The notes under the pieces: generated by a model
What the model saw: only the letters and a program-made list of their open reading frames with translations
What the model was told of the DNA's origin: nothing
Database searches by the model: none
From: Bacteroidales bacterium UBA2716
GTDB lineage: Bacteria > Bacteroidota > Bacteroidia > Bacteroidales > UBA932
NCBI GenBank assembly: GCA_002354005.1
Contig: DEKS01000148.1
Span: forward strand, 1-40,661
Length of the DNA stretch: 40,661 bases
Direction: 5' to 3'
Made by a program: the position numbers and the translations under genes
In this document: positions 3,129 to 38,777 of the stretch, piece after piece
Numbering within the stretch: position 1 is the stretch's first letter
Layout of the letters: the number at the start of each line of letters is the position of its first letter

Positions 3129-3154
3129 ATCTATAAACTTTTATATTCTATCAT

Positions 3155-3184
3155 GAGATACGCTCGCTTCGCTCGGTATGACAG
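3155..3184 (-). repeat. Single REP-like palindromic element (CGTC/TGTC-tagged family)
   Basis: Minus strand CTGTCATACCGAGCGAAGCGAGCGTATCTC resembles the widespread GTCAT..GAGCGAAGCGAG..ATCT intergenic repeat; lies in the 58-nt gap between the permease and adaptor genes. Confidence 0.55.
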
Positions 3185-3186
3185 GA

Positions 3187-6620: not shown

Positions 6621-9503
6621 CTACAGGGCCTTTAAGGCGCCGTCCAGGCGGCGGAAGGCAATGTCGATGAAGTCCTTGGTGCCGGAACCGTCGTTCACAT
6701 ACCCGATCACCATGTCGGCAAAGTCGATGGCCTCACGGAGCGGCGTGCTCTTGTCCTGGATGCCTTTGGCCCGGGTAACCAGCTTAAGGAGGGCGTCCAA
6801 ATCCTCCGGCTCCGCCAGGTTGCCGGGCCGCATGGAATTGATGGCTGCATTCAGGGCCGATGTAGCCTTGGTCACGGCCTCCTGCCCGGCGTTGTCATCG
6901 GCAAGGACAGCCTCTGCCGCAGCCATTTGCTCCTGCATGCGGGCGTAGCCGTTGGGGGCCCAGGGGGCGAACGGCGGCACTTTCTCCGCAAGGGCGTTCC
7001 AGGCATCCTGGGCCTCCACGCGGGAGCGGGCAATCTTCACGGCCTGCTCCAGGTAGGTCTTGTCCACCACGCCGGCCCTGGCGGCTTCCTTGTTGCCGGT
7101 GAGCACGTTCAGGCGCAGGTAGTGGGTGCTGTGCCCGGTCATGAAGTAGTCCGGATAGAAGGTTTTGTCGCCCAGGGTGAGGCTGTACACATTGCCATTG
7201 GTGCCTTCCCCGCCAGTGGTCCCCTTGAGCACCACGTCTTTCAGGTCTGCATCCAGGGTGAATTCCGCCTGTTCCCATACGGTGATGTCCGGGGTGGCCA
7301 TCACCAGCGGGCCGTACAGGATGGCGCCTTCCCACATGGGCTCGAACGGCGTACGGGCCTCGTTCACGCCCGTTGCCGCCAGGTCCATCTTGTCCGGGCC
7401 AAAATGGATGTGGGCGCTAAACGGCATCTTCACTTCCACTTTGTCGCCGGCCTTCCACTCCCGCTCGGGGATTTCCACGTAGGAGCAGGGTGCGTATTGT
7501 TTAGCCACGGACTTGCCGTTGAGCTTGACGCTGAAGCCCTGGGTGGCCCAGGACGGCACGCGGAGTTTCATGGCAAAGCGGCCGCCTTTGTCTATGCGAA
7601 TAACGGACTTCTCTGCCGGCCAGGCGCATTCCTGGGTGAATGCCACGTCCTTGGCGGCCCAGCGTACCTGCGTGGGCAGATACAGCGCCACCCAGAGGGT
7701 GTTGTCATTCACAAAGTAGGCGGCTTCCTGGTATTTCACGTGGTTTTCCGCACCGGTGCCGCCGCAGCAGGTGCTCTGGGGCGTTTCGCTGCCAAACGGC
7801 TTGGTGGCGTTCAGGCCCACGGCGTACTGATAGCACACGCCGTATTCCGTGGGATGCACGGAGCCCACCAGCTGGTTGTACAGCACGCGCTCATAGTAGT
7901 CCATATAGCGGGCGTCGTCCGGGTTGAAGCTGTTCAGGTCCTTGGTGAGCTTGGCCAGGTTGTAGGCGCAGCAGGTCTCGTTGATGTCCGGGTTGGGGAA
8001 GAGGTTGCCCTCGTGGTCGCTCATCACGCTGGTGTTCATGCTCATCATCTGGGAGTAGGGCTGACGGAACATTTCGCCGTTGCCCACGCCGCCCATGGCG
8101 TAGGCGTATCGGCCCTGAATCATTTCCCAGAAGTTGGAGGCGATGTTGTAGTAGCGCGGGTCTCCGCCCACCTCGTAGCTCTTGAGCGCGCCCACAATCA
8201 TGGGGATGTGCTGGTTGGCGTGGCGCGTGCGGATATCGTCGATGTTGCGGGACAGCGGCTCGTAGAAGGCCGGGGCGTCAAAATAGGACGCGGCCTCCGC
8301 CAGGCGCTGTTTTTCCGTGGCGTCCTGCACCATGTCGCTCAAGCGGGCCAGGGACTCCTGCATGCCGCCCACTTCGCCGGCAATGTACATGTTCCACATC
8401 TCGTAGCGGTTGCCGGGACGGGCCTGGCGCTCCGCCTTGGTGCCATCGGCCTTGACATAGGTGCGGTAGTGGAGGCGGTTCCACACCCACAGGCCCATGT
8501 CCTTGGCCACTAACAGCGCCTTGGCTGCCAGGGCTTCGTCGTCAATGTTGTTGGCAATGTCTATAAGGCCGGCCAGTTGCTTGTGGATGGAATAATACGG
8601 GGCCCAGACGCCGCTGAAGTTATTGTAGGCGGTGTATTTCTCGATGAGGACGGGGTGCTGGGCCGGAATGGCGTTGATGTAGCCGTAACCATACTGGGTG
8701 CAATCCTTCTTGTACTGGTCGAAGGCGTCCCAGGTGCCCTTCATATGCTTGAGCTCGGCTTCCGGGGCCAGGTCGCGGGCCTCCCGGTATCGGCCCAGCT
8801 TGGGGTCGTACACGAAGGTAAGTTCCTGGCAGGCCCGGAGTTCGTCCACCATGCGCTGGATGTTGGCCTTGAGGGCCGCCTTTTGCTCCGGATTGTCCGT
8901 GCTGGCGTAGGCGAAGGCCAGGGCGCTCATGTAGTGGCCGCTGCCGTGGCCCTTGAGCTTGGTGTCCGGGGAATCCCAGCCGTCGCTCTCCGTGTAGCCT
9001 TCCGTGGGGAGGCCGTAGGTGTCACGGTAGTTGTACAACTGCTGGGTAATGTCCTGGGCCAGCAGGTTGCGGATATCCATGTCCCGGTTGCCGGTGAGGC
9101 GGTTGTCACCAATCAGCTTAACATCGCCCAGCGGCAGGGGCTCTGCCACCTTTGCCGGAGTTTCCCATGTGCCGTCCACCACGGTGACGGAGGCTTCCAG
9201 CGGATAGCCGTTCTCGGTGGTGTTGTCGCCGATTACATAGCCTTTCACCACGTATGTGCTGCCCACGGGCAAGGCGGCTTCCTCCTCCTCGGTTTCGCGG
9301 AGGGAGTTGGTCCATTTTACCTGGCGCCACTCGCGGGTGCCATCGGCATAGGTTACCTGGATTTGCCAGGGCAGACGGGGAGCCGTTCCCTGCGGCGTTT
9401 CCACCGTTACGGCGGGCACTTCCTGGATGGTACGGGCGGTTTTGGAAGGGCTGCAGGCTACCGCCAGTGCGGCAACGAACGCAATTTTGGCTATGGTTTT
9501 CAT
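6621..9503 (-). CDS. Beta-L-arabinofuranosidase lipoprotein (GH146/GH127 Cys-glycosidase group) with N-terminal Ig-like and C-terminal FIVAR-like regions
   Basis: Lipobox ALAVAC; GWDSP..LKGHGSGHYMSA, WAPYYSIHK, RHANQHIP, NETCCAYN, DYYERVLYN, STCCGGTG Zn/Cys motifs; Big_4-like PRLPWQIQVTYADG; FIVAR-like VDKTYLEQAV...ALNAAIN. Confidence 0.85.
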   Translation of the reverse strand: MKTIAKIAFVAALAVACSPSKTARTIQEVPAVTVETPQGTAPRLPWQIQVTYADGTREWRQVKWTNSLRETEEEEAALPVGSTYVVKGYVIGDNTTENGYPLEASVTVVDGTWETPAKVAEPLPLGDVKLIGDNRLTGNRDMDIRNLLAQDITQQLYNYRDTYGLPTEGYTESDGWDSPDTKLKGHGSGHYMSALAFAYASTDNPEQKAALKANIQRMVDELRACQELTFVYDPKLGRYREARDLAPEAELKHMKGTWDAFDQYKKDCTQYGYGYINAIPAQHPVLIEKYTAYNNFSGVWAPYYSIHKQLAGLIDIANNIDDEALAAKALLVAKDMGLWVWNRLHYRTYVKADGTKAERQARPGNRYEMWNMYIAGEVGGMQESLARLSDMVQDATEKQRLAEAASYFDAPAFYEPLSRNIDDIRTRHANQHIPMIVGALKSYEVGGDPRYYNIASNFWEMIQGRYAYAMGGVGNGEMFRQPYSQMMSMNTSVMSDHEGNLFPNPDINETCCAYNLAKLTKDLNSFNPDDARYMDYYERVLYNQLVGSVHPTEYGVCYQYAVGLNATKPFGSETPQSTCCGGTGAENHVKYQEAAYFVNDNTLWVALYLPTQVRWAAKDVAFTQECAWPAEKSVIRIDKGGRFAMKLRVPSWATQGFSVKLNGKSVAKQYAPCSYVEIPEREWKAGDKVEVKMPFSAHIHFGPDKMDLAATGVNEARTPFEPMWEGAILYGPLVMATPDITVWEQAEFTLDADLKDVVLKGTTGGEGTNGNVYSLTLGDKTFYPDYFMTGHSTHYLRLNVLTGNKEAARAGVVDKTYLEQAVKIARSRVEAQDAWNALAEKVPPFAPWAPNGYARMQEQMAAAEAVLADDNAGQEAVTKATSALNAAINSMRPGNLAEPEDLDALLKLVTRAKGIQDKSTPLREAIDFADMVIGYVNDGSGTKDFIDIAFRRLDGALKAL

Positions 9504-9528: not shown

Positions 9529-11682
9529 TTACTTGATGTGCATGTGAATGGTGACTACGGCCTGGTAGTCGCCGTACACGAACACCGGGCGGATGGTGTA
9601 ATCCTCGCCGGGGGAGACTACGCCGGGCTTGGTGCCCACTTGGAAGGTCCAGCTGGTGCGGTCGTACTGGGTGTACACGGTAGGCGTTCCGCCCCAAGGG
9701 GTGACGGACCCGTCCGGAGCATACCAGAAGCCGTAACCGTTGGCCGTGTACTGGTAACTCACCGTGCCGTCCGGCTCCAGCGAACCGAACTTCACCTTGC
9801 CCTTGGCGTAGTTGGCGCGGTCGGAGGCAATGGCGGCGGCAATCTCGGAGGGCTGCATCACAAAGGCATACCCAATCTTCTCGAAATCGTCCGCATCAAA
9901 AGTGAAGGTGGGGCCGGCATACCCGTCGGCGGCCGGGACGTCAATATCCTTGACGATTTCCGTGTTGTGCGGCGTTTCGTCGCCGGTGAAGGCAATCTTG
10001 GTGATGAGGTCGGTCCCGGTGAAACGTACGCGGTACGGCCAGGTGCCGCCCTGCTCGCTGCCGTAGTAGCGGGAAGGCGTGCAGGATACCACCAGCCACA
10101 GTTTTTCCGTTTCTGCAGGAACGGTCCAGTTGGCGCTGGAGGTCCCACTGGTAAGCGTAGGGGTGCTGTAGGCGCGGGAACCATCGGCCAGGAGGGCTAC
10201 AAAACCGTAGGTCCAGCCGGCATCGGCCTTCTTGGCCAGGCCTTCGAATTCCGCGCTTACACTGCTGCCGGCAGCGGGTTTCAGGCGGATGATGTTGAAG
10301 CCGGTGGCCTCCGGAGCGCGGGCGTCGCCCACTTTGTTCCAACCGTCGCCGTCGTCAGAACCCACCCAGCCGATGTTGCCGATGTAATCCGTGCCAAAGT
10401 CGCCAATAGAGGCGGTGCGTTCCACGTTGCCTTGCTCGTCCAGGTTCACCACTTCCGTCTTGAAGTCCCAGGTGGCGCAGCGGGCGGCGTATTCGTACAA
10501 ATCCTGGTTCAGGGTGGCTACGTCTCCGCCGCAGTAGAGGCGCATGTAGGCCTGGCAGGCGTCTTCCGTGCGCTTGGATTCCTTCCAGATGCGGCCGTAG
10601 GCGTCAAAGCCGTATTTGTCGGTCCATAGGAACTGGAACCAGTAGGAGGCGTAACGCATGTCAAAGTAATGGAAGTGCCGATGGCTGTTCTCCGCAAACA
10701 CGCGGAAGTTGTCCTGCGTGTAGGCCTGCTCGGCATAGAGGTTGAAGCTCTGCCAGTTGGCGCAGGCTTCCCAGAACACGCCGCCGCTCTGCATGAAGCC
10801 GGCGTCCTTTTGGCCGAAATCGGAGTATACCTGATACTGGAACGCGTGCCCAATCTCGTGGGCAACGGTGCTGCCGGTGGGCTGGCAGGCCGTGGCGCTC
10901 ACCCACAGGCCGCCCATGTTGCCGGAACCGCCGCCCTCGGCCTTCCAGGAAGTAGTGCCGTACAGGAAGATGGACATGTAGTATTTGTCCAGGAACGACT
11001 CTCCCTCGGGGCCGCGCATGCCGAACTTGTTCACATAGGTGTCGTAGTAAATCTCGGCCTTCTTGAGGAGGTCGTCCACGTCTACGCGGATTTCCTTGGG
11101 CGTGTCGTTATCGCCCGGGTCAATCTCCCCCGTCTCGTCGTAGCCCTTGTCCCACAGGACGATGAAGTGCTCGCTGGTGCGCGCACGGCCCAGGTAGAAC
11201 TCGCTGTCGGAGCTCTTGAGCTTGGCTAGGCTGCCCGTAATGCCGGTGTAGATGCGGCTGGCATCAATGCCCTTGGCGGCGATTTCCGCATCGGTGAGGG
11301 TAATTACCGGAGCCTTCTGCGTGACGGTAAAGCTATACTTGGATTCTCCGCTCATGATGGAAACATCGGCCTTGCGGGAGGCTCGGTCCGTGTTTTCATC
11401 GGCCGTAATGGTTACCTTGAACGACTTTTTCTCGCCGTTTCCCGTGGCGCGTTCCGGGTCAAAGTGCAGCCAGCTGGCCTCGCAGGCAATGTGCCAGGCC
11501 TCGGTGCAGGTGAAGCGGATGACCTTTTCGCCGCCCTCGGCCGTGAAAGTGGCCGCCGGGGCAATCTTGTAGGCAATCTCGCCGGTATTTTCCGTCCAGG
11601 TTTCCTTCTCCTGCTGCTTCTGGCAGGAGAAAAACAGCCCTGCGCAGAGGACGAGGGCTGTCAAATGAAGTACATGTTTCAT
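9529..11682 (-). CDS. Surface lipoprotein: BACON + HEXXH zinc-peptidase-like domain (DUF6055-like) + C-terminal DUF4859-like module
   Basis: Lipobox FFSC, BACON-like (FTAEGGEKVIRFTCTEAWHI..SWLHF), HEIGH at 10846-10860 then FWEA, C-terminal TANGYGFWY module. DUF names recalled, not searched. Confidence 0.75.
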   Translation of the reverse strand: MKHVLHLTALVLCAGLFFSCQKQQEKETWTENTGEIAYKIAPAATFTAEGGEKVIRFTCTEAWHIACEASWLHFDPERATGNGEKKSFKVTITADENTDRASRKADVSIMSGESKYSFTVTQKAPVITLTDAEIAAKGIDASRIYTGITGSLAKLKSSDSEFYLGRARTSEHFIVLWDKGYDETGEIDPGDNDTPKEIRVDVDDLLKKAEIYYDTYVNKFGMRGPEGESFLDKYYMSIFLYGTTSWKAEGGGSGNMGGLWVSATACQPTGSTVAHEIGHAFQYQVYSDFGQKDAGFMQSGGVFWEACANWQSFNLYAEQAYTQDNFRVFAENSHRHFHYFDMRYASYWFQFLWTDKYGFDAYGRIWKESKRTEDACQAYMRLYCGGDVATLNQDLYEYAARCATWDFKTEVVNLDEQGNVERTASIGDFGTDYIGNIGWVGSDDGDGWNKVGDARAPEATGFNIIRLKPAAGSSVSAEFEGLAKKADAGWTYGFVALLADGSRAYSTPTLTSGTSSANWTVPAETEKLWLVVSCTPSRYYGSEQGGTWPYRVRFTGTDLITKIAFTGDETPHNTEIVKDIDVPAADGYAGPTFTFDADDFEKIGYAFVMQPSEIAAAIASDRANYAKGKVKFGSLEPDGTVSYQYTANGYGFWYAPDGSVTPWGGTPTVYTQYDRTSWTFQVGTKPGVVSPGEDYTIRPVFVYGDYQAVVTIHMHIK

Positions 11683-13511
11683 TATTTACCGTAAGGTTTG
11701 ATGTTGCTGAACTGGGCTTTCCAGGGCCACTTGGTGTCCGTGTTGTCGGATTCGTCCGCCCAGGGATGGCGTTCATACTTGTTCGGAGCACCGGTAACCA
11801 CCAACCACACTTTGGAGGCGTTGGCAGGTACCGTCCAGGTCTGGGTTTCGCTGCTGCTCACGCTGGCTTTCCAGATAGGGCTGTAGGTGCGGGTGTTGTC
11901 AGCATTGAGGGAGACAAAGCCGTAGCGCCAGCCGGCCAGCGAGACCGAGCCGCTCTTGCAGCCGCTTGCGCCCAGGTTTGCGCCAAAGGTAACGCTTACT
12001 TCTTCACCCTTAGGAACCGTCATGCGGACAGCGTTATAACCGGTGGTCTCGGGGGAGAGGGAAGCGTTTACGCTCCACCAGCCGTCGCTTTCGCTGATGT
12101 TTCCGGCCGAAATAGCCATCTCACCATGATGGTCGATGGTCATGCTTCCGTATTTGTATTTGGCATATTGACGGAGCTCTTCGGTGTCGTAGGTGACCAT
12201 GTGCGAGGCATAGCCGTACATGGAGTCGTTCATCTGCTCCACGTCGTAGTCCATCAGGCGCATGTAGGTCTCGATGGGATCTTCGGGGAACTGGGCTTCG
12301 TTCCACAGGCGGCCGATGAAGGTGATGTCGTTCTGCTCCACCCACCACCAGTGGATGAAGTAGTCGGCGTAGCGCGGACGCTCGTGCAATACGTGCAGAT
12401 GCGTGGACTTGGTATATTCGCCATACCAGCCGGCGAAGGTTTCCTCGCGGTACTGGCTCATGACCATGCTCTGCCACTGGGCGGTCTGCTCCCAGAAAGC
12501 GTTGCCGCCGTCACCGTTGTCACCGTAGCCATAGCGCCAGCCGGGACCCTGCAGGCCGGAAGTGGAAGGGGCTTTGTCCACGCTCACGCCCTGGCGGACC
12601 AGGTAGTCGCAGAAGGTCATGTACTGGAAGCAGTGGCCAATCTCATGGCCGATGGTGCTGCCCACAGGCTTGCAGGTGGACGGATTCACCCACAGGGCGC
12701 CAATCACGTTGTCGTAACCGGAACCGGTGGCCAGCCATTCGCTCTGGTAGATGAGGTAGATTTCCATCTTGTACTTGTCCAGGACGGACTGTCCTTTGCC
12801 GGTGTTTGCAAATTTGAGCTTGTTCACGTTGAGGTCGTAGAATTCTTCGGCTTTTTTGAGGAGGTCGTCAATGTCCACGGCCATGGAACTGGTCTTGCAG
12901 GTGGTGGGCCAGGTATTGGCTTCACCCATGCGATCGCCGTAAAGGCCGTACTGGCCGTATTTGATGTCCCAGAACACCACAAAGTGCTCGCTCTGCTTGC
13001 TGCGGCACCAGCTCCACTTGGCGTCCGAGCGGAACATGTCAAAGTTGAATTCCTGCGGCTTGTAGTATTTCTCCAGGTCCGGAACGTCGGCTGCCGTCAG
13101 GATAAGAACGGCGGCATTCTGGTTCACGGTGAATTTCTTTTTCTTGGAGCCGGAAAGGATGCGGCAGGTTGCCGAGCGTGCAGGGCCATTGTTGGCTTTG
13201 CCCGCCAGGGTGACGCGGATGGTCTTACCGCTCTTGCCGCTCATTTTCTCGGCGGAGAGCCAGCTCTGGGCCTCTTCCGGAATTTCCAGGAACCACTCGT
13301 GGTCGCAGGCAAAAATGAGGATGCCGGTATCGCCTTCTTCGGGCCCGATGGTTACGGACTGCGTAGTAAGGGTGATGGTGGCCTCGTAGTTGTCCGTCGG
13401 GCCGGTGGGTGTGTTTTCCGCGGGCGTCTGGTCCGTGTTGTCCTTTTGGCAGGCGGGTACGGCGAACAGGGCCGCCGCCAGCATCAGATACAGAAAAAGT
13501 TTTTTCATCAT
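11682..13511 (-). CDS. Surface lipoprotein: BACON + HEXXH zinc-peptidase-like domain (DUF6055-like), no C-terminal module
   Basis: Lipobox AVPAC, BACON-like (FACDHEWFLEIPEEAQSWLS), HEIGH at 12633-12647 then FWEQ; paralog of both neighbours. Confidence 0.75.
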   Translation of the reverse strand: MMKKLFLYLMLAAALFAVPACQKDNTDQTPAENTPTGPTDNYEATITLTTQSVTIGPEEGDTGILIFACDHEWFLEIPEEAQSWLSAEKMSGKSGKTIRVTLAGKANNGPARSATCRILSGSKKKKFTVNQNAAVLILTAADVPDLEKYYKPQEFNFDMFRSDAKWSWCRSKQSEHFVVFWDIKYGQYGLYGDRMGEANTWPTTCKTSSMAVDIDDLLKKAEEFYDLNVNKLKFANTGKGQSVLDKYKMEIYLIYQSEWLATGSGYDNVIGALWVNPSTCKPVGSTIGHEIGHCFQYMTFCDYLVRQGVSVDKAPSTSGLQGPGWRYGYGDNGDGGNAFWEQTAQWQSMVMSQYREETFAGWYGEYTKSTHLHVLHERPRYADYFIHWWWVEQNDITFIGRLWNEAQFPEDPIETYMRLMDYDVEQMNDSMYGYASHMVTYDTEELRQYAKYKYGSMTIDHHGEMAISAGNISESDGWWSVNASLSPETTGYNAVRMTVPKGEEVSVTFGANLGASGCKSGSVSLAGWRYGFVSLNADNTRTYSPIWKASVSSSETQTWTVPANASKVWLVVTGAPNKYERHPWADESDNTDTKWPWKAQFSNIKPYGK

Positions 13512-15775
13512 TCGGTAATGGTTATGTTGAATTTCAGTGTTGCTTTGTAGTTGCCTTTCACAAAGGCGAAGCGAACGGTGTATTGGTCGCCGGCCTTGAT
13601 GTCGCCGCTTTTCACCTTGTCCGGATGTACGCCGAACTGGCAGCTCCAGGTACCCGGCGTATATTCCATGTAGGTGTAGGCTGCGCCCCAGCTTTGCACG
13701 GACCCGTCGGCGCCATACCAGAAGCCGTAGCCGTTGGCGGTGTAGTTGTAACTGAGCGATCCGTCAGGCAGTACGGCGGCAATTTTCACGGCGGCGCTCT
13801 GCACGTTGGCGCGGTCCGCCGGAATGGCGGATACAATGTCCGAGGGCTGCATCACAAAGGCCTTGGCAATCTCAATCACGTCGTCGTCCAGGGTGAAGGA
13901 CGTGCCGGCGTAGCCTGCTGCGGCCGATGTGCTGATGTTGTGCTCCAGTTCAATGCTCCTGGGCGTCTCGGTGCCGTCGAAGGAAATATTGCCGTACAGG
14001 TCCGTGCCGGTGAATTTCACGCGGAAGGGCCACTGCTCGTCGTTGCTGTTGTCCTCATCCCAAGGGTGCTGGAGATAGGTTTCCGGTGTGGCGGCAACCA
14101 CAAACCAGAGTTTCTGGGCGCCTTCCGGAACAGTCCAGCTGATATCGGCGTTGTCGCGCACGCGTGTGCTTTCAGAATACTTTCTGCTTCCATCCTGCAT
14201 AAGGGCCACAAAGCCCACGTTCCAGCCTGCGATGGAAGGGTTGGCTACGCGGTTGAAGCCCGTAGCGTTGGGCAGGCCCTCAAAGCGGACGGAAAGCTGC
14301 CTGTCGGCCGGAATGTTGATGCGGATGTGGTTGAAGCCGGTAGCTTCCGGGGCACGGGAGTAGTCTACGGTATAGAAGCCGCTGGCGTTGTCGTAATTGC
14401 CCGTCCAGCCAATCTTGCCTATGTAATTTTTGCCGAATTCCCTCACCGGCTGCGTGACGCCTGTCAGTTTCCCCTCGTCCAGGTTGGTGGCTTCTGCGCT
14501 GAAGTCCCAGGTGACGCAGCGGGCGGCGTAGTCGTACAGGTCGGCATTCAGTTCATCCATGCTCAGGCCATGCATGCGCTGGTAGGCCTGGATGGGGTCT
14601 TCGGGCTTCTTGGCACCGCGCCAGACCTCGCCAATCTCCGCCACACCGTGCTTGGAGGCCCAGTGCCACTGCAGGAAGTAGCTGGCGTAGCGCTGGTGCT
14701 CGTGGGTGAAGTGACGGTGACTGTTGTTCACGAACTCCGAGAAGTTCACGGTGGAGAAGGCCTGCTCCGCATAGGACTGGTAGGCCTGCCACTGGGCGCA
14801 CTGCTCCCAGAAGCCGCAGCCCTGGCCAATCTCGTAGCGGAAACCCGTGGAGAAGTCGTTGGGGGCGCCGTTCAGGATGGCATCGGCATACACCATATAC
14901 TGGAAGCTGTGGCCAATTTCATGGGCGATGGTGCTGCCCACCGGATGGCAGGTGGCGGGATTGATCCACAGCGCGCCAATGGTGTTGTCGTAGCCGCTAC
15001 CGGTGGCCAGCCATTCGGTCTGGTGGAGGATGTAAATCTCCATCTTATATTTGTCCAGATTGGATTTTCCCTTCCCGGTGTCTGCAAATTTGAGCTGGTC
15101 AATGTTGACCCGGTAGAATTCCTCCGCCTTTTCCAGGAGGTCGTCAATGTCCACGTAATAGGCATTGGACGGGTCCAGGGTGGCAGGGGAGGTGTTCTCC
15201 GTTCCAGCCTTGGCGCCGTACAGGCCGTAGGCGCCGTATTCCTTTTCCCAGAATACCACAAAGTGCGTGCTCTGCTTGCTGCGGCACCAGCTCCAGTGGG
15301 AGTCCGAGCGCAGCATGTCGTAATTGAATTCGGCAGGCTGGTAATACTTGTCGATGTCGGGGACGTCGCTCCGGCTCAGGATGAGCACGGCCATGTCCTG
15401 GGACACCGTAAATTTCTTCTTGTTTTTGCCGGAGAGAATGCGGCAGGTGACGCTTCGCCGTGCACCCGTGTTCTCTTTGGCGGTAAAGGTGATGGCCGTG
15501 GTTTTGGTGGACTTGCCGGACGTCTTATTGGCGCTGAGCCAGTCCTGGGCCTCTTCCGGAATCTCCAGCGTCCATTCATGGTCGCAGGAGAAGGTGAACA
15601 TGCCCGTGGCTCCCTCCTCGGCCGAGAGGGTGACAGCGCTGGTGTTCAGCGTGATGGTGGCGTCATAGGTGTCCGTTTCCGTGGGCGTGGTGTTGTCCGT
15701 TTCGGGATTCTGTTTGTTGCAGGCCACAGCCACGGCAAGGACCAGCAGCAGGCTGTTCCGGAAGAATGATTTCAT
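13508..15775 (-). CDS. Surface lipoprotein: BACON + HEXXH zinc-peptidase-like domain (DUF6055-like) + C-terminal DUF4859-like module
   Basis: Lipobox AVAC, BACON-like, HEIGH at 14909-14923 then FWEQ, C-terminal TANGYGFWY module. Confidence 0.75.
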   Translation of the reverse strand: MKSFFRNSLLLVLAVAVACNKQNPETDNTTPTETDTYDATITLNTSAVTLSAEEGATGMFTFSCDHEWTLEIPEEAQDWLSANKTSGKSTKTTAITFTAKENTGARRSVTCRILSGKNKKKFTVSQDMAVLILSRSDVPDIDKYYQPAEFNYDMLRSDSHWSWCRSKQSTHFVVFWEKEYGAYGLYGAKAGTENTSPATLDPSNAYYVDIDDLLEKAEEFYRVNIDQLKFADTGKGKSNLDKYKMEIYILHQTEWLATGSGYDNTIGALWINPATCHPVGSTIAHEIGHSFQYMVYADAILNGAPNDFSTGFRYEIGQGCGFWEQCAQWQAYQSYAEQAFSTVNFSEFVNNSHRHFTHEHQRYASYFLQWHWASKHGVAEIGEVWRGAKKPEDPIQAYQRMHGLSMDELNADLYDYAARCVTWDFSAEATNLDEGKLTGVTQPVREFGKNYIGKIGWTGNYDNASGFYTVDYSRAPEATGFNHIRINIPADRQLSVRFEGLPNATGFNRVANPSIAGWNVGFVALMQDGSRKYSESTRVRDNADISWTVPEGAQKLWFVVAATPETYLQHPWDEDNSNDEQWPFRVKFTGTDLYGNISFDGTETPRSIELEHNISTSAAAGYAGTSFTLDDDVIEIAKAFVMQPSDIVSAIPADRANVQSAAVKIAAVLPDGSLSYNYTANGYGFWYGADGSVQSWGAAYTYMEYTPGTWSCQFGVHPDKVKSGDIKAGDQYTVRFAFVKGNYKATLKFNITITE

Positions 15776-15789
15776 AAGTGTTTGATTTT

Positions 15790-15826
15790 AAAAGCAAAAG
15801 CCAGAGGAAAGCCCCCTGGCTTTTGC
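15790..15826 (-). terminator. Intra-operon stem-loop (partial terminator or mRNA stabiliser)
   Basis: Stem gcaaaagccag (15794-15804) / ctggcttttgc (15816-15826); on the minus strand it extends by G:U pairs and is followed by TTTT. Confidence 0.75.
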
Positions 15827-15841
15827 GTAAAAAATAACGAA

Positions 15842-17437
15842 TTATTGAGCTGTATTGAAGGTAAGGCTGTAATTCAGCGTTGCAGTTACAGTCTTGTCTG
15901 CGGCAGTAAAGCTGACTACAATTTTGTAATTGTTGATGGTCTTGCCGTTTACGCCGGCCATATCAGAATCATAGAAGCCACAGGTGGTAGTAAAATCATC
16001 ATAGAATTCTACATAGTAGCTGCGTGCATTTGCTGCGCCCTCTTCCTCACTTACTTTATCTCCGAAGTTAATGGATTTACCATTGACATCGAACCAGTTT
16101 CCGAATAAGCCACCTGCGGTAGGAGTAACTTCTTCTTCTCCGACGTAAGCTTTCGCTGTAAGTTGACCGGAAAGGGCGGCGCTGCCAACTTGGTCCGCGG
16201 TAATCTGGAAGGCGTCCAGAATTGCTTCACTTGCGTCGTAGCTGGCTCCTTCTGTGGTTACAGTCATGGTAACAGGAATGACAACATCTTTCATTTTGGC
16301 AGCGTCAATAGGCTCAACTTCGCTTACGCCTTCAAATTGGGAATCGAAAGCGAATGTTGCAACGGCCTTGCCTCCTGTGTAGGTGAAGGTGAGCTCGAGT
16401 TTGAGGTTGTCAACCTTCTTTCCTGCAACAGCTGCGTAGTCGTTATAACCAACGCGGAGAATAAGGTCCGTGCCCAACTCAAAGTAGTAGGCATAGCCTT
16501 CGGAGCCCCAGGTGCAAACCTGCAGATCGCCGTTGAACCATGCTCCGGCGATACCGGCTGCGGTGTTGTCAACTTCTTCATTATTGATATAATTTTTGCC
16601 TACGATGGCGCCAGTGCCACAAGCAATGCCAAAGTCTTCGGCGGAAAGCTTGAATGCATCAAGAACCTGTTCGGAGAAGTCAATCTCAGCACCGGCTGCA
16701 GTGAAGGTTTCCTTCACCGGGATTTCGATGTCCTTGGTCGCACCGCTGGGCTCAATGGCTCCGGCATCAACAATCTTGATGTTCCATTCTACATAGTAGT
16801 AACGTTCTACATCGTCATCATCGGTAATGAAGAATACTTCCGTAGCTTTGTATACATCGCCTACTTTACCGTCAAAACCTCCGTCAAGGAAGCCGATATT
16901 GTAGGTCCACATGGCATCAAGTGTCTCTGCATCCGGAGAATCAGCACCCCAGTCAACAACACTTTCGGTGTAGAAAAGTTTGTCGCCCGCTTCATCGCTC
17001 CAGTACGTCATACGGCCGGTTTTGCTCCACCAGTGACCATAATTGGCAGAAGTTTTGGGAATCCATTTCATGTTGTCATGGTTATTCTCGTCGGCAACAC
17101 CAAACATCATGGTGTTGTCCTTCTGGGCAGAAATACCGGTGGCGCCGGCATCGTCATCGCAATACCCCATGGCTTTGTAGAACTCTTCTGCGGTCATGTC
17201 GAAGAAATCAAGGATGTCGTCGCCAGGCATCTCCGCTGCGTGGGCAGCCCATTTACTGGTTTCCACGCCGTTGATCATTTCTACAGTTACTACAGTGGTC
17301 TTCTCAACGAAGCCTTCCTCAACGGGATCGGGATTCTCATTGCCGTTGCCGCCGTTGTCCACGGGGATGACGGGCTTTTTCTCACAGGCAGCGAGGGTGA
17401 GGGCTGCGGCTGCAATAAACAAGAATACTTTTTTCAT
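15842..17437 (-). CDS. SusE-positioned surface binding lipoprotein with three DUF4859-like repeats
   Basis: Lipobox TLAAC; very acidic; three repeats (ILDFFDMTAEEF..GHWW, VLDAFKLSAEDF..GAWF, ILDAFQITADQV..GNWF); immediately after SusD. Confidence 0.7.
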   Translation of the reverse strand: MKKVFLFIAAAALTLAACEKKPVIPVDNGGNGNENPDPVEEGFVEKTTVVTVEMINGVETSKWAAHAAEMPGDDILDFFDMTAEEFYKAMGYCDDDAGATGISAQKDNTMMFGVADENNHDNMKWIPKTSANYGHWWSKTGRMTYWSDEAGDKLFYTESVVDWGADSPDAETLDAMWTYNIGFLDGGFDGKVGDVYKATEVFFITDDDDVERYYYVEWNIKIVDAGAIEPSGATKDIEIPVKETFTAAGAEIDFSEQVLDAFKLSAEDFGIACGTGAIVGKNYINNEEVDNTAAGIAGAWFNGDLQVCTWGSEGYAYYFELGTDLILRVGYNDYAAVAGKKVDNLKLELTFTYTGGKAVATFAFDSQFEGVSEVEPIDAAKMKDVVIPVTMTVTTEGASYDASEAILDAFQITADQVGSAALSGQLTAKAYVGEEEVTPTAGGLFGNWFDVNGKSINFGDKVSEEEGAANARSYYVEFYDDFTTTCGFYDSDMAGVNGKTINNYKIVVSFTAADKTVTATLNYSLTFNTAQ

Positions 17438-17484: not shown

Positions 17485-19425
17485 CTAGTCGCCAGGCTGA
17501 TCGGTAGTGGATGCGTCGGAGAAGCCGTAGTTCTGGACCAGCTTGATGTTGGACTGGATGAATTCCGTGTAAATGGGGAATACATTGTTGTGCCAGTCGC
17601 CCACGTCCATCTTTTTCTTGCGGCAGAACCAGGTTTTTCCGTTGTACACGTTGCGGCCGTCGGAGCACATGAAGCGCTGCAGGTCCTGGCGGCGGTGGTG
17701 TTCACCCACGAACTCCCAGGCCAGGTCATCCAGGAGACCGCCCAACTCGATGCTGGCGCTGTTGTCCTTGGTGTATTCCGTGAAGGAGGATGCGAGCACA
17801 TTGCCATTGGCGTCGTACTTGAAGTCGGCGTACGGGTTGGCGGAGGTGGAGGTGGTGCATTCACGCACGCCGTAGTCATACACGGAGTCTCCGCGGAGCT
17901 GTGCGGCGGTACGGGTGGCCTTGGCCGGATTGTCCTTGAAGGCGCGCTGGCGCACCATGGTTACCCAATTGGCGGCATCGGCATCGCTCTTGCCGTCAAT
18001 GCCACCGGCGCGGAGCACGGTCTCGGCCATGATGAAGTAGGCGTCCGACAGGCGGTAGAAGCACACGTCGTCACCATAGGTGCCGCGGTTACCGGGCACA
18101 ATTTCCTGTCTCTTGAAGCGGGCGCCTTCAAAGTCGTAAGCTCCGGGATTGTTGATGGAGTGGACTTCTACGGTGTAGATGAGCGGGTAGTTGCCGGCGG
18201 CGTGGTTGTGCGTCTTGTGCTTGGGCTCGGCGGAAATCATGGCGGCGGTAAGCATGTCGGGACCGTCGTCGGAACGTTTCTGCTCTTCCTCGTAGATGGG
18301 GAAGCCCGGGTCGTCATAATAATACTGCTGGCCAATGGCCCAGGTGTCCGTGAGACGGGTGTCGTCCGGGTCATAGCTGTGGATGAACTGCGGCACGGCG
18401 CAGGAACCGTTCCAAGGGGTTCCGCTGTAGCCGAAGGCGGCGCCGCCGCGGCCCACGAAGCACTTGTTTACCAGGTAGTTGTGGCTGGCCTTGGCACCGT
18501 CCAGCGGAAGGACAAAGATGACTTCCTTGGCGCCGTTCAGGTTGTTGCGGCTGTTGTCCAGATAGTTGTCGGCCAAGCTGTAACCGCCTTCGTCAACAAC
18601 CATCTTGGCATATTCGTAAGCCTTCTTGTACCACTTGTTGCCGTTCTGGGCGTTGGTCTGGAAGAACTCGCTGTCCCAGTTGCGGTTGTTGCGGGCGTGT
18701 TCCGACATCACCAGATTGGTGGCGGCATCTTTCTCGAAGCCGCGCAGCCAGCTGTCGTGCATGAGGAAGGTCTTGGCGGCCAGCATGCAGGCGGCGTACT
18801 TGTTCATACGGCCGTACAGCTTGGTAGTGGGCATGTCGGGAATGCACTCTTCCACTTCTTTGGCCAGGAAGTCCCATACGTGTTCCGGAGCCACCTGCTC
18901 GGGCAGGTAACCGGGGGTAAGGGTGGCTTCATAGCTGATTTCCAGCGGAATGTTGCGCCACAGGTCAAAGAGCACGAAGTAGTACAGGGCGCGCAGGGCG
19001 CGAACCTCTGCATAGGCTTCCTTGTTGTCCTTGATGGCCTGGGTCTCAAGCAGCTGGTTGGCTTTCATGATACCGTTGTAGCAGTAGTTCCACTCCTGCC
19101 AGAGGTGCGGAATACCGGCATAAGGGTCGTTCTGGTGCAGGTTGATGTATTGGGCGCCCCAGCCGCCGTAGGTGCGGTAGGGAGTCATGATGAGGTCCGA
19201 GCTTTCTTCGTTGATGTCGAAGTAGCCTTCCCAAGCCCAGTACATGAAACGGAGCTGTACATACAGGTTGCCCAGCATGTCCGCGGTTTCGTCTTCCGTT
19301 CCGGAAAGGTTAGCCGGGGAAAGGGAAGAGTAAACGTGCTCTGTAAGGTCCGTACAGGAGGGAGCAGCTCCGAGGATGGCGGCAGCAGCAAAAGTGCTGG
19401 CAATGATTTTGGTAATGGTTTTCAT
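17485..19425 (-). CDS. SusD/RagB-family nutrient-binding lipoprotein
   Basis: Lipobox AAPSC, AEVRALRALYYFVLFDLWRNIP, GRMNKYAA, YRLSDAYFIMAE, LAWEFVGEHHRRQDLQRF. Confidence 0.93.
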   Translation of the reverse strand: MKTITKIIASTFAAAAILGAAPSCTDLTEHVYSSLSPANLSGTEDETADMLGNLYVQLRFMYWAWEGYFDINEESSDLIMTPYRTYGGWGAQYINLHQNDPYAGIPHLWQEWNYCYNGIMKANQLLETQAIKDNKEAYAEVRALRALYYFVLFDLWRNIPLEISYEATLTPGYLPEQVAPEHVWDFLAKEVEECIPDMPTTKLYGRMNKYAACMLAAKTFLMHDSWLRGFEKDAATNLVMSEHARNNRNWDSEFFQTNAQNGNKWYKKAYEYAKMVVDEGGYSLADNYLDNSRNNLNGAKEVIFVLPLDGAKASHNYLVNKCFVGRGGAAFGYSGTPWNGSCAVPQFIHSYDPDDTRLTDTWAIGQQYYYDDPGFPIYEEEQKRSDDGPDMLTAAMISAEPKHKTHNHAAGNYPLIYTVEVHSINNPGAYDFEGARFKRQEIVPGNRGTYGDDVCFYRLSDAYFIMAETVLRAGGIDGKSDADAANWVTMVRQRAFKDNPAKATRTAAQLRGDSVYDYGVRECTTSTSANPYADFKYDANGNVLASSFTEYTKDNSASIELGGLLDDLAWEFVGEHHRRQDLQRFMCSDGRNVYNGKTWFCRKKKMDVGDWHNNVFPIYTEFIQSNIKLVQNYGFSDASTTDQPGD

Positions 19426-19444: not shown

Positions 19445-22400
19445 TTACTTGTTGCCGAAGGTGAGATTTACGCCCAGGGTGAAGGTACGGATGGTAGGAT
19501 ACTTGTTGCGGTAGTCCACACCGAAGCCGAAACGGTCGCCGGAGGACATTTCCGGGTCGATGCCCTTGTATCCGGTGATGCAGAATACGTTCTCGCCGGA
19601 GAAGAAGATGCGGGCACGGTCCAGGTATTTCACGTTGTCTGTCTTGAAGGTGTAGCCGAAGTTGAGGTTGTCCAGCTTCAGGTAGTCACCGTTCTCCAGG
19701 TAGTAGCTCACGGCCACCGGCTGCTGGGAAGAGGAGAGAACGCCGCCATAAACGGGCTCTACGGCGCTCTGATAACGGTTGAGGCCGATATTCAGGTTCT
19801 CGTAGAACATGCGCTGGCAGTTGAAGATCTTGAAGCCCAGGGCAGAGGAGAAGGCCAGGGTGAGGTCGAAGCCCCTGTAGCGGAAGGTGTTGCTCCAGCC
19901 AAAGTTCACGGCCGGAACACCGGAGCCCAGATACTGGCGGTAGCGGGAGTCATAACTGCGCATGCCATCCACGAACATGGTGGATTCGCCGGTCTCAGGG
20001 TCTTCAATCATCCACATGCCTTTTGCTGAACGGCTGGTGCTCAGTCCGGTGGACTTAAGCATGTAGAAGTCGCCCAGGGCACCGCCTACATAGGTACGCT
20101 GCAGGACCATGGAAGTGGGTTCTTCCGTCCAGGCGCCGTCCAGGTAGTCCTCGGTCTGATACAGGTCATTGGAGAGGGACTCCAGGCGGTTCTTGTTGTG
20201 GGAAACGGTGAGGGTGGTGTTCCACTCGAAGTTGCGGGTACGTACGGGCGTACCGCCCACCATGAGTTCCACACCGGTGTTGGACATGGTGCCCACATTG
20301 GCGGTGGTACTGTTGTACAGGTTCGGGGGTACCGGCACGGAGTAATCCCACAGGAGGTCTACGGTGCGCTTGTGATACACATCCAGGGAACCGTACAGGC
20401 GGCCGTCGAAGAAACCGAAGTCCACACCCACGTTCACCTCATGGGAGGTCTCCCACTTGAGGTTCTTGTTCTCGTTCTGGATAGGCGTGAGGGAAGGACG
20501 CCATACCCCGTCCGGGGTGATGTAGTTGCCGTAGGAGGTGTCATAGTCGTACAGCAACAGCGACATGTAGGAAGCGCTGGGAATAACGCCCGTTTTACCG
20601 TAACCGGCACGGATTTTCAAGTTGTCCAGCCAGCGGACGTCCTTGAGCCAGTCTTCGTTGGAGAGGGTCCAGCCGGCGCTGACGGCAGGGAACAGACCCC
20701 ACTTGTTGTTGGCGGCGAACTTGGAGCAGCCTTCATAGCGCAGGGTAGCCAGCACATTGAAGCGGTTGTCGAAGTTATAGGTGAAACGGCCGAAGAAACC
20801 AATAAGCGTGGCTTCTTCCTTGTGAGAGGAAACGCCGCCGTAGGTTTTCAGGGTATAGGTCTTGTTTTCGCCTTCACCGGATTCCACCAACTCTGCCAGA
20901 CGGCCGGCTTCCAGGGCGTTGTACAGGTAGGCGTCCGTAGGGAATTCGGAGTTGGAAGCGCCAAAGCTGCTGCTGGTGCTGCGCATCCAGCTGTAGCCAA
21001 GCATGCCGCTGATATGGTGCTTGCCCAGTTGGCGGTCGTATTGGGTGGTGAGCTCCAGCAGGTTTTGGGTGAAGTCTCCCTGGCTCTTGCCGGCGCTGCC
21101 GTTGATGCCGCCCCAGCGGTTGCCCTGGTATTTGGCGGTGTTGTAGTATTCGTTCACGGAGTTGTTGCGGCGGGTGCTCAGCTGCAGGTTGGTTTTCCAG
21201 CCGGCGATGGGCTCTACAGTGATGTTACCGGTGAGGCGGGTGGTCTCAATGCGGTAGTCTCCCGTGTGCTCCTTATTATAAGGGATAGGGTTGTAGTAAT
21301 ACAGCGGAGCGGTTTGCTCGTAGTAGTCCTGCGTGGGGTCGTTGTCCACATAGATGGGCGCCGTAGGGTTGCGGATGACCGCCTGGTGGTATATGGTCCA
21401 GCTGTCCTGGTTGTCGCTCTTTGAGAGCGTCTTGAGCATGTTGACGTTAATCTTCAGGATGTCGTTGAACAGGTACTGGGTGAGGTCCACCTGGGCGCGG
21501 AGGTCCTGGCTGTAAGAGCCTTTGATCACACCCTGGTTGTCTTTATAGGTAACGTTGGCGGAATAGGCCATGTGCTTGGTGCCGCCTTCAAGGTTGATGT
21601 TGTGGTTGTGGGCAAAGCCGGGGTGGGAAACCTCGGAGAGCCAGTCCGTATTGTAACCCAGGTCTGCGAACGGGGAATACTTGGCCAGGTAGGTTTGGCC
21701 GCTGCTGTCCGTTCCCAGGTCTTCCAGCATGTGCATGAAGTCCGCATCCATGAATTTCACGCGCTTGGAGAAAGTGGAGACGGAAGCATAGCCGTTGTAG
21801 GAGATGTTGAAGCGCTCTCCCACTTTACCGGCCTTGGTGGTGATGAGAATGACACCGGCGGCACCGCGGGTACCGTAAATGGCGGCTGCGGAAGCATCCT
21901 TCAGGACGGTGATTTCCTCGATGGCCTCGGGAGCCACGGTGGAGAGGGAACCTTCAATGCCGTCCACGAGGACCAGCGGAGTGTAACCGCCCATCAGGGA
22001 GTTCACGCCACGGAGCATGATGGTGGAAGTGGAGTTGGGGTCGCCGTTGCCCTTGGTAACGTTGAGACCGGCCACTTTGCCTTTCACCAGCTGGGCTGCG
22101 TCCCCGATGTTACCGGCAAGGAAGTCCTCGCTTTTTACATTGGCGACGGCTGAGGTGATGTCACCTTTCTTCTGGGTACCGTAACCGATGACCACGGCGT
22201 CTTCCAGGGAGAGGAAGTCCTCCTGGAGGGTCTGGTTGATGACGGTGCGGCCCTGAACGGGTTCATCGGCCTGCAGATAGCCGATGGCGGAGAAGGTAAT
22301 GGTGGCATTGGCACTGATGCCGGTAAGGTGGTACTTACCTTGCTCGTTGGTGATGTCACCGCTGCGGGTACCGGCTACAAGCACGCCTACGCCAATGATG

Positions 22401-22522
22401 GGTTCACCTTTGGCATCGGTCACCGTACCGGTAACGTCGATGGTCCGCTGGGCGAAGGCCTGCGTGCCCACGAGGAGCATCAGACCGGCAGCCAAAGCAG
22501 AACAAATGGATTTGAAGTGCAT
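19445..22522 (-). CDS. SusC/RagA-family TonB-dependent transporter
   Basis: Signal peptide, N-terminal extension domain (VTGTVTDAKGEPIIG), VVIGYGTQKK, plug VLKDASAAAIYGTRGAAGVILITTK, LKWETS, ENGDYLKLDNL, terminal beta strand TFTLGVNLTF. Confidence 0.96.
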   Translation of the reverse strand: MHFKSICSALAAGLMLLVGTQAFAQRTIDVTGTVTDAKGEPIIGVGVLVAGTRSGDITNEQGKYHLTGISANATITFSAIGYLQADEPVQGRTVINQTLQEDFLSLEDAVVIGYGTQKKGDITSAVANVKSEDFLAGNIGDAAQLVKGKVAGLNVTKGNGDPNSTSTIMLRGVNSLMGGYTPLVLVDGIEGSLSTVAPEAIEEITVLKDASAAAIYGTRGAAGVILITTKAGKVGERFNISYNGYASVSTFSKRVKFMDADFMHMLEDLGTDSSGQTYLAKYSPFADLGYNTDWLSEVSHPGFAHNHNINLEGGTKHMAYSANVTYKDNQGVIKGSYSQDLRAQVDLTQYLFNDILKINVNMLKTLSKSDNQDSWTIYHQAVIRNPTAPIYVDNDPTQDYYEQTAPLYYYNPIPYNKEHTGDYRIETTRLTGNITVEPIAGWKTNLQLSTRRNNSVNEYYNTAKYQGNRWGGINGSAGKSQGDFTQNLLELTTQYDRQLGKHHISGMLGYSWMRSTSSSFGASNSEFPTDAYLYNALEAGRLAELVESGEGENKTYTLKTYGGVSSHKEEATLIGFFGRFTYNFDNRFNVLATLRYEGCSKFAANNKWGLFPAVSAGWTLSNEDWLKDVRWLDNLKIRAGYGKTGVIPSASYMSLLLYDYDTSYGNYITPDGVWRPSLTPIQNENKNLKWETSHEVNVGVDFGFFDGRLYGSLDVYHKRTVDLLWDYSVPVPPNLYNSTTANVGTMSNTGVELMVGGTPVRTRNFEWNTTLTVSHNKNRLESLSNDLYQTEDYLDGAWTEEPTSMVLQRTYVGGALGDFYMLKSTGLSTSRSAKGMWMIEDPETGESTMFVDGMRSYDSRYRQYLGSGVPAVNFGWSNTFRYRGFDLTLAFSSALGFKIFNCQRMFYENLNIGLNRYQSAVEPVYGGVLSSSQQPVAVSYYLENGDYLKLDNLNFGYTFKTDNVKYLDRARIFFSGENVFCITGYKGIDPEMSSGDRFGFGVDYRNKYPTIRTFTLGVNLTFGNK

Positions 22523-37916: not shown

Positions 37917-38777
37917 ATGAAACGTCTTATCCTTCCCGTGGTGGTGCTTGCAGCCCTTATCCTGGGCTGCAAGGGCCCCCAGAAGGCGGTGGAAGTGGAC
38001 TTTGTCACCGCCTTGGGCATTCCGGAGTGTGTTATCACCACACCTCCGGATTCGCTGCATCTGGACCCTTGGTACAAAAAGTATGTGGACGTGAACGGCA
38101 TTCCGCTGTGCAGCTCCCGGCGTTGCCCGGACAGCGCACTGGTAGCCGGTTACAACACCCTGTGGGCCATGACCTCCATGTTGTCGGATGACGTTATGGA
38201 CGCCCTCAGGAAGGCCGGTACCAGGGTTACCATGATGGGCCGGTACGAGGGCACCACGGATGTGCCGGAGCACGCTTATCTTGCGGCGGATACCACCCTC
38301 AACTGGGACTTGAGGGCCCGCGGCCTGGGCGGCGACCTGGAGTTCCCGCTCACCTCCTGCGCGGAGGAGAACGTGCTGGGCTACCAGATAGACAAGTACC
38401 ACGCGGAGGATATCCTCATTCACGAATTCGCCCACAGCATCCACCTGGTGGGCATTGTCCAGGTGGAGCCGGACATCAACGGGCGCCTGGAGGTGCTGCT
38501 GCAAAATGCCATCGACAAAGGGCTGTGGTGGAATACGTACCGTACCACGGACATTGCGGAGTACTTTGCGGAGGGCGTGCAGGACTGGTTCAACGTGAAT
38601 GCGGAGATGGACCATCCTGACGGCAAACACAACTACGTGAACACCCGCGAGGAACTCAAGGAACGGGACCCGGGCCTATGGCAGCTTCTCAGTGAGTATT
38701 TCCCCGCCACGGACCAGCAAATCTCCAAGCACAAGTACGTAAACCTTTGCACCAAAGCTAATAGTCGAACCCGATAA
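37917..38777 (+). CDS. Small HEXXH zinc-metallopeptidase-like lipoprotein (lethal-factor/PPEP- or M90-like zincin)
   Basis: Lipobox LILGC; WDLRARGLGG, ILIHEFAHSIH, EYFAEG third-ligand motif, ELKERDPGLWQLL. Confidence 0.7.
   Translation: MKRLILPVVVLAALILGCKGPQKAVEVDFVTALGIPECVITTPPDSLHLDPWYKKYVDVNGIPLCSSRRCPDSALVAGYNTLWAMTSMLSDDVMDALRKAGTRVTMMGRYEGTTDVPEHAYLAADTTLNWDLRARGLGGDLEFPLTSCAEENVLGYQIDKYHAEDILIHEFAHSIHLVGIVQVEPDINGRLEVLLQNAIDKGLWWNTYRTTDIAEYFAEGVQDWFNVNAEMDHPDGKHNYVNTREELKERDPGLWQLLSEYFPATDQQISKHKYVNLCTKANSRTR

Follow-up and report, generated by a model that had tools for sequence, protein, structure and literature searches.

We analysed a 40,661-nucleotide stretch of the Bacteroidales bacterium UBA2716 genome (contig DEKS01000148.1, assembly GCA_002354005.1; hereafter the window), in which three tandem genes, termed peptidases A, B, and C, encode lipoproteins of the DUF6055 family. 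Judging from sequence comparison and gene context, A, B, and C likely (probability roughly 0.7) cut the backbones of extensin-type plant glycoproteins, which are rich in hydroxyproline (Hyp) and arabinosylated, into glycopeptides for the adjacent SusC/SusD transporter. They probably start extensin digestion in the gut, because they are related to Svx, a peptidase of plant pathogens that is known to cleave extensin, and lie among genes predicted for the breakdown of extensin sugars and Hyp.

Three tandem DUF6055 lipoproteins with a predicted zinc site

Three stop-free open reading frames (ORFs) on the minus strand fill positions 9529-15775 exactly, with an A/B overlap of ATGA and a B/C overlap of TAATG. 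They are the sole three DUF6055 matches of the 2.25-Mb genome and share pairwise identities of 32–48%.

13508..15775, minus strand: peptidase A, a 755 aa lipoprotein with BACON (~50-128), DUF6055 (142-594) and DUF4859 (622-745)
14909-14923, minus strand: HEIGH of peptidase A, with the third-ligand Glu324 at 14804-14806
11682..13511, minus strand: peptidase B, a 609 aa lipoprotein with BACON and DUF6055, without a C-terminal DUF4859
12633-12647, minus strand: HEIGH of peptidase B, with Glu341 at 12489-12491
9529..11682, minus strand: peptidase C, a 717 aa lipoprotein with BACON, DUF6055 and DUF4859
10846-10860, minus strand: HEIGH of peptidase C, with Glu305 at 10768-10770 and an Asn at E+4 as in Svx

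The HEIGH motif occupies H285-H289 in A, H289-H293 in B, and H275-H279 in C, and is followed after 34, 47, and 25 residues, respectively, by the Glu of a downstream FWE (E324, E341, and E305). A preliminary description of this DNA had reported three tandem lipoproteins with HEIGH and FWE, lipoboxes followed by charged residues, a BACON N-terminus and a DUF6055-like character, and all of these features were found. The lipobox Cys (C19, C21, and C20) is followed by NKQNPETD in A, QKDNTD in B, and QKQQEKE in C, all of them charged, of which only that of B resembles what we take to be the textbook Bacteroidetes export signal. Pfam matches to BACON had E-values of 7e-8, 1e-5, and 3e-10 for A, B, and C, and those to DUF6055 (PF19527) had E-values of 1e-131, 2e-121, and 2e-100, with scores of 440, 406, and 337 bits over model positions 5-416 of 417 (gathering cut-off, 27 bits). 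The C-terminal DUF4859 of A and C, also matched by Pfam, was absent from the preliminary description.

The putative catalytic residues were compared in an alignment of 145 sequences, in which A, B, and C were combined with 71 of 120 listed homologues from one search and 71 of 150 from another. H285, E286, H289, and E324 were kept in 143, 144, 143, and 143 of the 145 rows, respectively, and such near-invariance indicates that the HEXXH motif with its Glu is not a chance occurrence. In an alignment-based AlphaFold model of A (residues 38-755, mean predicted local distance difference test score (pLDDT) 96.6; a single-sequence fold reached only 33), HEIGH and E324 lie on two helices. The model and the alignment together place HEXXH on one helix and the conserved Glu on the following one, which is the clan-level arrangement of gluzincins. 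The ratio of nonsynonymous to synonymous substitutions (dN/dS) was 0.08–0.20 in all four orthologue pairs, and the three genes are under purifying selection. A, B, and C are predicted to be zinc endopeptidases with a gluzincin-like fold, anchored in the outer membrane.

No solved homologue was found by sequence, either for A alone or for the 145-row profile. By structure, the best solved match of the A model among 48,161 representative chains was the M30 peptidase lugdulysin (PDB 7BB8; Z 15.4, root-mean-square deviation 4.7 over 273 aa of the catalytic region, 10% identity), followed by M1, M9, M36, and M4 peptidases (Z 9–11). The fold in common with lugdulysin says nothing about the substrate. 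The N-terminal domain of the model resembles the Ig-like N-terminal domain of 3ZMR (Z 12), and the whole-model searches barely covered DUF4859.

Relationship to Svx and to M60 peptidases

The Svx/AvrXca model NF040510 matched A (E = 1e-21, 77 bits) and C (E = 4e-14, 52 bits) but not B, and none of the three reached its whole-protein cut-off of 625 bits. A tblastn search with the catalytic domain of A against 72,556 plasmid records gave two matches, one of which came from Novosphingobium (L010). The L010 protein is a full Svx member (NF040510, 835 bits) and covers positions 25-416 of the 417 of the DUF6055 model (E = 2e-96); its alignment with C is collinear (24% identity over 424 aa, E = 5e-17). 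The match of A to the profile and that of C to a full member indicate a homologous Svx peptidase domain. Because L010 is a full Svx member and carries DUF6055 near full length, we take the Svx peptidase domain to be a DUF6055 domain, on the basis of this one family member.

Svx of Pectobacterium is a Zn-dependent, EDTA-sensitive gluzincin whose E141A and E167A mutants are 3-fold less active (PMC9266454). It degrades carrot extensin, and neither porcine mucin nor concanavalin A, as published in 2026, and removal of its C-terminal beta-helix abolishes extensin cleavage while azocasein cleavage is kept (PMC13164431). The proposal that the genes represent a new, uncharacterised family therefore does not stand, since DUF6055 contains a peptidase domain with published extensin degradation (PMC13164431). 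Bacteroidota go unmentioned in the accessible portions of the Svx survey and of PMC10815107, and a DUF6055-bearing fungal protein was assigned to MEROPS M106 and predicted, as a prediction only, to be a collagenase (PMC11241649). In the open-access literature searched, the paper on this fungal protein was the single one to mention DUF6055, none of the DUF6055 and Svx occurrences checked linked the two, and neither a Bacteroidales extensin locus nor a role for DUF4859 was found.

A, B, and C resemble Svx/AvrXca of Pectobacterium, Dickeya, and Xanthomonas (PMC9266454, PMC10815107, PMC13164431) in the whole-length DUF6055 peptidase domain with HEXXH and downstream Glu, and extensin is the proposed substrate in both; the Novosphingobium member also lies near GH146-like and S9 genes. 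However, A, B, and C are ~24% identical to the Svx family, score at most 77 bits against the cut-off of 625, and are BACON lipoproteins, whereas Svx is a secreted protein. They have DUF4859 (A and C) or nothing (B) where Svx has its acyltransferase-like beta-helix, and the HEXXH-to-Glu spacers are 25–47 residues versus 19–22 in Svx. The W/F-G at H-4/H-3 of Svx, where W-G was proposed to bind alpha-Gal-Ser (PMC9266454), is replaced by S-T in all three, and the E+4 Asn is kept only in C, with Gln in A and B. The proposed role here is nutrient uptake in a gut anaerobe, while that of Svx is virulence.

The C-terminal region of L010, used as a query against 1181 collected proteins, matched five other Bacteroidales proteins but none of A, B, and C. 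The architecture is the new feature: DUF4859, which the lipoprotein next to SusD also carries, takes the place of the beta-helix on which extensin cleavage by Svx depends, and an old set of three paralogues has kept its gene order. The triple occurs in the same order in four genomes (the source genome, G467, G470, and G517), and A, B, and C were not recently duplicated, because each is 60–85% identical to its ordered counterpart elsewhere. In a 92-row tree, A, B, and C each belonged to a different well-supported lineage within a separate 39-row clade (support 97), most members of which are polysaccharide utilization locus (PUL) lipoproteins. Five Bacteroidales DUF6055 proteins (L040, L041, L043, L044, and L046), of a phylum not in the published survey, were observed to have an Svx-type beta-helix region and grouped loosely with the Svx member in this tree (support 90, long branches).

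M60-like zincins had been the framing of the preliminary description. BACON-M60 lipoproteins are an architecture of Bacteroides PULs, and A, B, and C resemble M60-like proteins (PF13402; ZmpB and the BACON-M60 proteins) in the predicted gluzincin fold, in being BACON surface lipoproteins of a PUL, and in the proposed common strategy, by which a glycosylated backbone is cleaved ahead of its import. But no Pfam M60 match was found for A, B, or C at E ≤ 0.01, S-T precedes HEXXH in place of W-G with its conserved Trp, the glycosidases encoded nearby are of plant type and not of mucin type, and the best solved match is lugdulysin; M60 membership was rejected on these grounds. By the profile tests, A, B, and C are DUF6055 members and neither Svx nor M60 members. 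The locus probably follows the logic of a BACON-M60 glycopeptidase PUL, with the family and likely substrate of Svx.

Gene context of the locus and its relatives

The other genes of the window were as follows (GH, glycoside hydrolase).

17485..19425, minus strand: SusD (Pfam)
19445..22522, minus strand: SusC TonB-dependent transporter (TIGR04056, 724 bits, cut-off 368)
22638..25517, minus strand: hybrid two-component system (HTCS) sensor/AraC-type regulator (two-component propeller, Y_Y_Y, HTH_18)
15842..17437, minus strand: 531 aa DUF4859 lipoprotein (three repeats of DUF4859 type), directly following SusD, where a surface glycan-binding protein is usually encoded
15790..15826 (approximate; gap 15776-15841), minus strand: hairpin between the DUF4859 lipoprotein gene and A, a 14-bp stem followed by a U-rich run
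6621..9503, minus strand: GH146-like beta-L-arabinofuranosidase directly downstream of C (best PDB match 5OPJ, E 1e-47, which we take to be the GH146 enzyme BT0349)
25654..28071, plus strand: GH127 beta-L-arabinofuranosidase (ATG at 25654, open frame from 25534; 1032 bits to 6EX6, presumably BT3674)
28056..30101, plus strand: GH51 alpha-L-arabinofuranosidase (Pfam)
30105..31442, plus strand: CotH-family kinase-like protein, of a kind that recurs beside DUF6055 genes
31442..32971, plus strand: M61 aminopeptidase (Pfam)
32982..34220, plus strand: GH27 alpha-galactosidase family protein (Pfam)
34227..36275, plus strand: S9 dipeptidyl-peptidase IV-like protein of the prolyl oligopeptidase family (Pfam)
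36288..37913, plus strand: pyrroline-5-carboxylate (P5C; glutamate semialdehyde) dehydrogenase (TIGR01236, 750 bits, cut-off 614)
37917..38777, plus strand: 286 aa lipoprotein with a conserved HEFAH...EYFAE and no Pfam or NCBIfam family
38777..40171, plus strand: M24 Xaa-Pro aminopeptidase (Pfam, NCBIfam)
40168..40661, plus strand: N-terminus of HypD, trans-4-hydroxy-L-proline dehydratase (NF043068, E 3e-52), which continues past the window

The window combines a SusC/SusD pair, a regulator, surface lipoproteins, and carbohydrate-active enzymes, as expected of a PUL. A, B, and C and the SusC/SusD side lie on the minus strand, and a divergent plus-strand operon runs from GH127 to M24. The PUL position of surface enzymes that had been assigned to A, B, and C was confirmed by the gene order HTCS, SusC, SusD, DUF4859-repeat lipoprotein, A, B, C, GH146-like. 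Directly downstream of the GH146-like gene lies a gene cluster for a MacAB-TolC-like ABC exporter (720-6415, minus strand), which is kept in G467 (L052).

The profile of the C-terminal DUF4859 also matched the three repeats of the post-SusD lipoprotein, in the window and in many related loci. Its conserved aromatics Y622, W686, and W696 were present in 85–92 of 97 rows, and from these patterns we infer that DUF4859 may bind the substrate glycan. The hairpin upstream of A had a folding energy of -26.7 kcal/mol (z -7.15), a stability that none of 200 shuffled sequences reached, and is likely a terminator or a stabilising stem. It may lower read-through into the peptidase genes.

The HypD piece continues beyond the window across an NN gap at contig positions 40662-40663, with a frame change, to the contig end; the gap is most likely an assembly join. 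It is 82–85% identical to a protein of locus L090, which at full length scored 1150 bits (HypD cut-off 1100) and matched PDB 6VXC with 936 bits, the next enzyme scoring 500. The nine HypD active-site residues given in PMC7077986 (H160, D278, S334, D339, F340, C434, E436, Y450, and T645) were kept in the L090/6VXC alignment, read by hand with a 20-residue offset.

We examined the neighbours of related DUF6055 genes, which were labelled by BLAST to Pfam-annotated references. In the loci of 20 genus genomes, SusC/D was found in 17, alpha-galactosidase in 13, HypD or P5C dehydrogenase in 11, alpha-arabinofuranose (alpha-Araf) enzymes in 11, beta-Araf enzymes in nine, and ara operon genes in seven, and every one of the 20 held at least one Araf, alpha-Gal, or Hyp marker. 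Proximity to GH127/146 was tested for 44 strong DUF6055 matches in 24 genomes, leaving out the source genome and five fragments or weak matches, and using the positions of 150 of 164 GH127/146 matches. Among the GH127/146 genes listed, 15 of the 44 matches lay within 25 kb of one, where at most 4.2 were expected by chance. Genome-level co-occurrence with GH127/146 (24 of 27) lacks a DUF6055-negative control and is not used as support.

Among 401 genomes surveyed in the order, 27 had a DUF6055 match over the cut-off (including the source genome and two borderline matches). In the genus, DUF6055 was present in 24 of 351 genomes and HypD in 23 of the 351. HypD accompanied DUF6055 in 19 of 24 positive genomes but occurred in only 4 of the other 327, and three of the five carriers without it are only 58–72% complete. 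The Fisher p-value of this association (3e-23) is overstated because of physical linkage and kinship. A recA tree of 69 of the 80 searched genomes (11 left out: three without a match, four partial, four with sequences not included) showed that the carriers are not one clade (approximately unbiased test, p 1e-4), with 11 changes needed. In G253 and G350, which belong to another family, the DUF6055 gene lies beside an aerobic Hyp pathway with a 4-hydroxyproline epimerase (573 bits, cut-off 376).

Several observations concern the neighbours themselves. The 286 aa lipoprotein is predicted from its motif to be a fourth zinc peptidase, of another fold family than A, B, and C, and is a candidate Pro/Hyp-peptide endopeptidase that may resemble Pro-Pro endopeptidases. 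Its family, with HEFxH...EYxAE invariant, occurs in the window, in L015, L017, L022, L038, and L048, and in 10 of 20 genus genomes. The family shows a weak similarity to the core of lethal-factor-type zincins (E 0.23); in L017 and L038 it forms a fusion with a GH97 alpha-galactosidase, and three loci carry two copies. A CotH kinase-like gene also lies beside DUF6055 in L012, L013, L031, L037, L050, L056, L061, L071, and L085, and the proteins of L012 and L056 end in a C-terminal DUF4859. Short-type DUF6055 is fused to GH27 in seven proteins (L066 and L072-L077) and to GH97 in one (L067), which suggests a coupling of Ser-alpha-Gal removal to backbone cleavage. DUF5695 proteins (~900 aa, no NCBIfam match) lie near DUF6055/Svx genes in L010 (9054-11810), L022, L072, and L087, in both Alphaproteobacteria and Bacteroidales, and are candidates for a new glycosidase of Hyp-arabinosides. 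A ~530-aa unannotated lipoprotein with HEGIH...WFHE (L086 5313-6893 and five similar, cluster u2), weakly like the DUF6055 profile (E 6e-6, one member), sits between DUF4859 lipoprotein and DUF6055 genes.

Substrate, alternatives, and implications

In extensin, Hyp residues bear beta-Araf chains and Ser residues bear alpha-Gal (PMC9266454, PMC10850190); an alpha-Araf cap is also described (PMC13164431). The gene set appears to match these linkages one by one. In the proposed pathway, the lipid anchor and the BACON spacer would hold the catalytic domain at the cell surface, and DUF4859 of A, C, and the 531-aa lipoprotein would bind Hyp-arabinoside clusters, taking over the job of the Svx beta-helix. 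The three old paralogues, with their different active-site loops, would cut different glyco-contexts. After import, GH51 would remove the alpha-Araf cap, GH127 and GH146 would take off the beta-Araf chain together with its bond to Hyp, and GH27 would release the Ser-linked alpha-Gal; S9, M24, M61, and the 286-aa zincin would free Pro and Hyp, which HypD and P5C dehydrogenase would convert to glutamate. GH127/GH146 beta-L-arabinofuranosidases are shared with HypBA1/HypBA2/HypAA of Bifidobacterium longum and XeHyp of Xanthomonas, where a prolyl oligopeptidase gene lies beside xehypAA (PMC6085000, PMC10850190). Those systems are described as releasing sugars, whereas the locus here adds surface endopeptidases, SusC/D import, and HypD, and the protein part is therefore likely used too. 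A fuller version, that this is a gut anaerobe's glycoprotein utilization locus for eating both the protein and the sugars of extensin, with endopeptidases guided by glycans as its entry enzymes, DUF4859 as a previously undescribed Hyp-arabinoside-binding module replacing the Svx beta-helix, and three paralogues that read different glycoforms and feed HypD, is offered tentatively, at somewhat less than even odds.

The substrate guess of the preliminary description, a Hyp-rich arabinosylated plant glycoprotein, is well supported by the Svx homology, by HypD and P5C dehydrogenase, and by the conserved context of relatives, although its M60 framing and its claim of a new family fell. Several points weigh against extensin cleavage by A, B, and C. 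The activity of this clade is predicted from sequence, and identity to the Svx family is only 24%; the beta-helix is missing, with no substitute C-terminal domain in B; and the W-G motif, as well as the E+4 Asn in A and B, is changed. For Svx itself, extensin cleavage was seen on gels and immunoblots, with no cut sites mapped (PMC13164431), and beta-Araf also occurs in arabinogalactan proteins (AGPs), arabinan, and rhamnogalacturonan II (PMC10850190). The HypD co-occurrence partly reflects linkage and kinship: the tree offered only four independent pairs on well-supported branches, with 2.3 concordant and none discordant, which gave a non-significant result (p 0.5) in an underpowered test. No listed GH127/146 lay within 25 kb of 29 of the 44 DUF6055 matches, several DUF6055 genes lie outside PULs, and many from other clades lack neighbours of this kind within 10 kb; DUF6055 proteins at large may therefore have wider roles.

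The strongest competing explanation, though an improbable one, is that A, B, and C cut other plant Hyp-glycoproteins, mainly AGP backbones and proline-rich proteins, or act only after deglycosylation and not on intact extensin. The GH127 of the window is closest to 6EX6, which we take to be BT3674. BT3674 acts on larch arabinogalactan (PMC10850190), GH43 enzymes in related loci resemble those of B. thetaiotaomicron, and the loss of W-G points the same way. Yet no beta-1,3/1,6-galactanase family was found in the window or in the scanned neighbours (cluster representatives and 44 of 115 listed singletons, with one GH2 in L055), and alpha-galactosidases of GH27 and GH97 adjoin or are fused to the peptidase, which fits Ser-alpha-Gal. 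It is less probable still that A, B, and C are general proteases of Pro/Hyp peptides or of collagen and gelatin, the arabinosidases forming a separate, co-located module. Such a role would suit L026 and L027, where a DUF6055 gene adjoins Hyp catabolism genes and no glycosidase occurs within 20 kb, as well as the azocasein cleavage by Svx (PMC13164431) and the predicted fungal collagenase (PMC11241649), but the operon shared with the GH146-like gene, the enrichment near GH127/146, the glycosidase fusions, and the herbivore-gut habitat (goat gut is among the labelled DNA holders) argue against it.

Two further alternatives are very unlikely. Non-catalytic surface binding proteins with a relic HEXXH would explain why A, B, and C occupy the position of such proteins, but hardly why the Zn ligands and the catalytic Glu are kept in them and in 143–144 of 145 aligned rows, or why dN/dS is so low. 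Equally hard to sustain is an M60-like mucin O-glycopeptidase acting on host glycoproteins: the BACON N-terminus would fit, and Foldseek, alone among the searches and with the whole three-domain model as query, listed ZmpB (7js4, E 7.5e-7, TM 0.2; 5kds, E 1.8e-5), but there is no M60 Pfam match, no fucosidase, sialidase, GH20, or sulfatase was found in the window or the scanned neighbours, and Svx does not cut mucin (PMC13164431).

The stretch was found in at least 20 sequencing runs from 10 studies, one run being its possible source. Most runs were labelled gut or goat gut metagenome, the others metagenome or coded organisms. Parts of A, B, and C are also represented, mostly at 90–99% identity, in contigs assembled from four RNA runs of three studies, which is compatible with expression, although contigs cannot prove transcription or rank genes. 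RNA run X15, with cover in every one of the 30 bins, may include DNA, while X16, X18, and X20 show no cover over most of the regulator gene, a weak hint only.

Cleavage of extensin by A, B, and C would have uses beyond the locus, as endopeptidases specific for extensin would serve the glycoproteomics of plant cell walls as well as feed digestion. This prospect is less striking because extensin activity has already been published for Svx of the same family (PMC13164431). For the families concerned, DUF6055 is now tied to Svx and a role is proposed for DUF4859, and for the organism, the locus presents a complete candidate route, open to direct testing, that leads from cleavage at the cell surface to the fermentation of Hyp in Bacteroidales of the herbivore gut.

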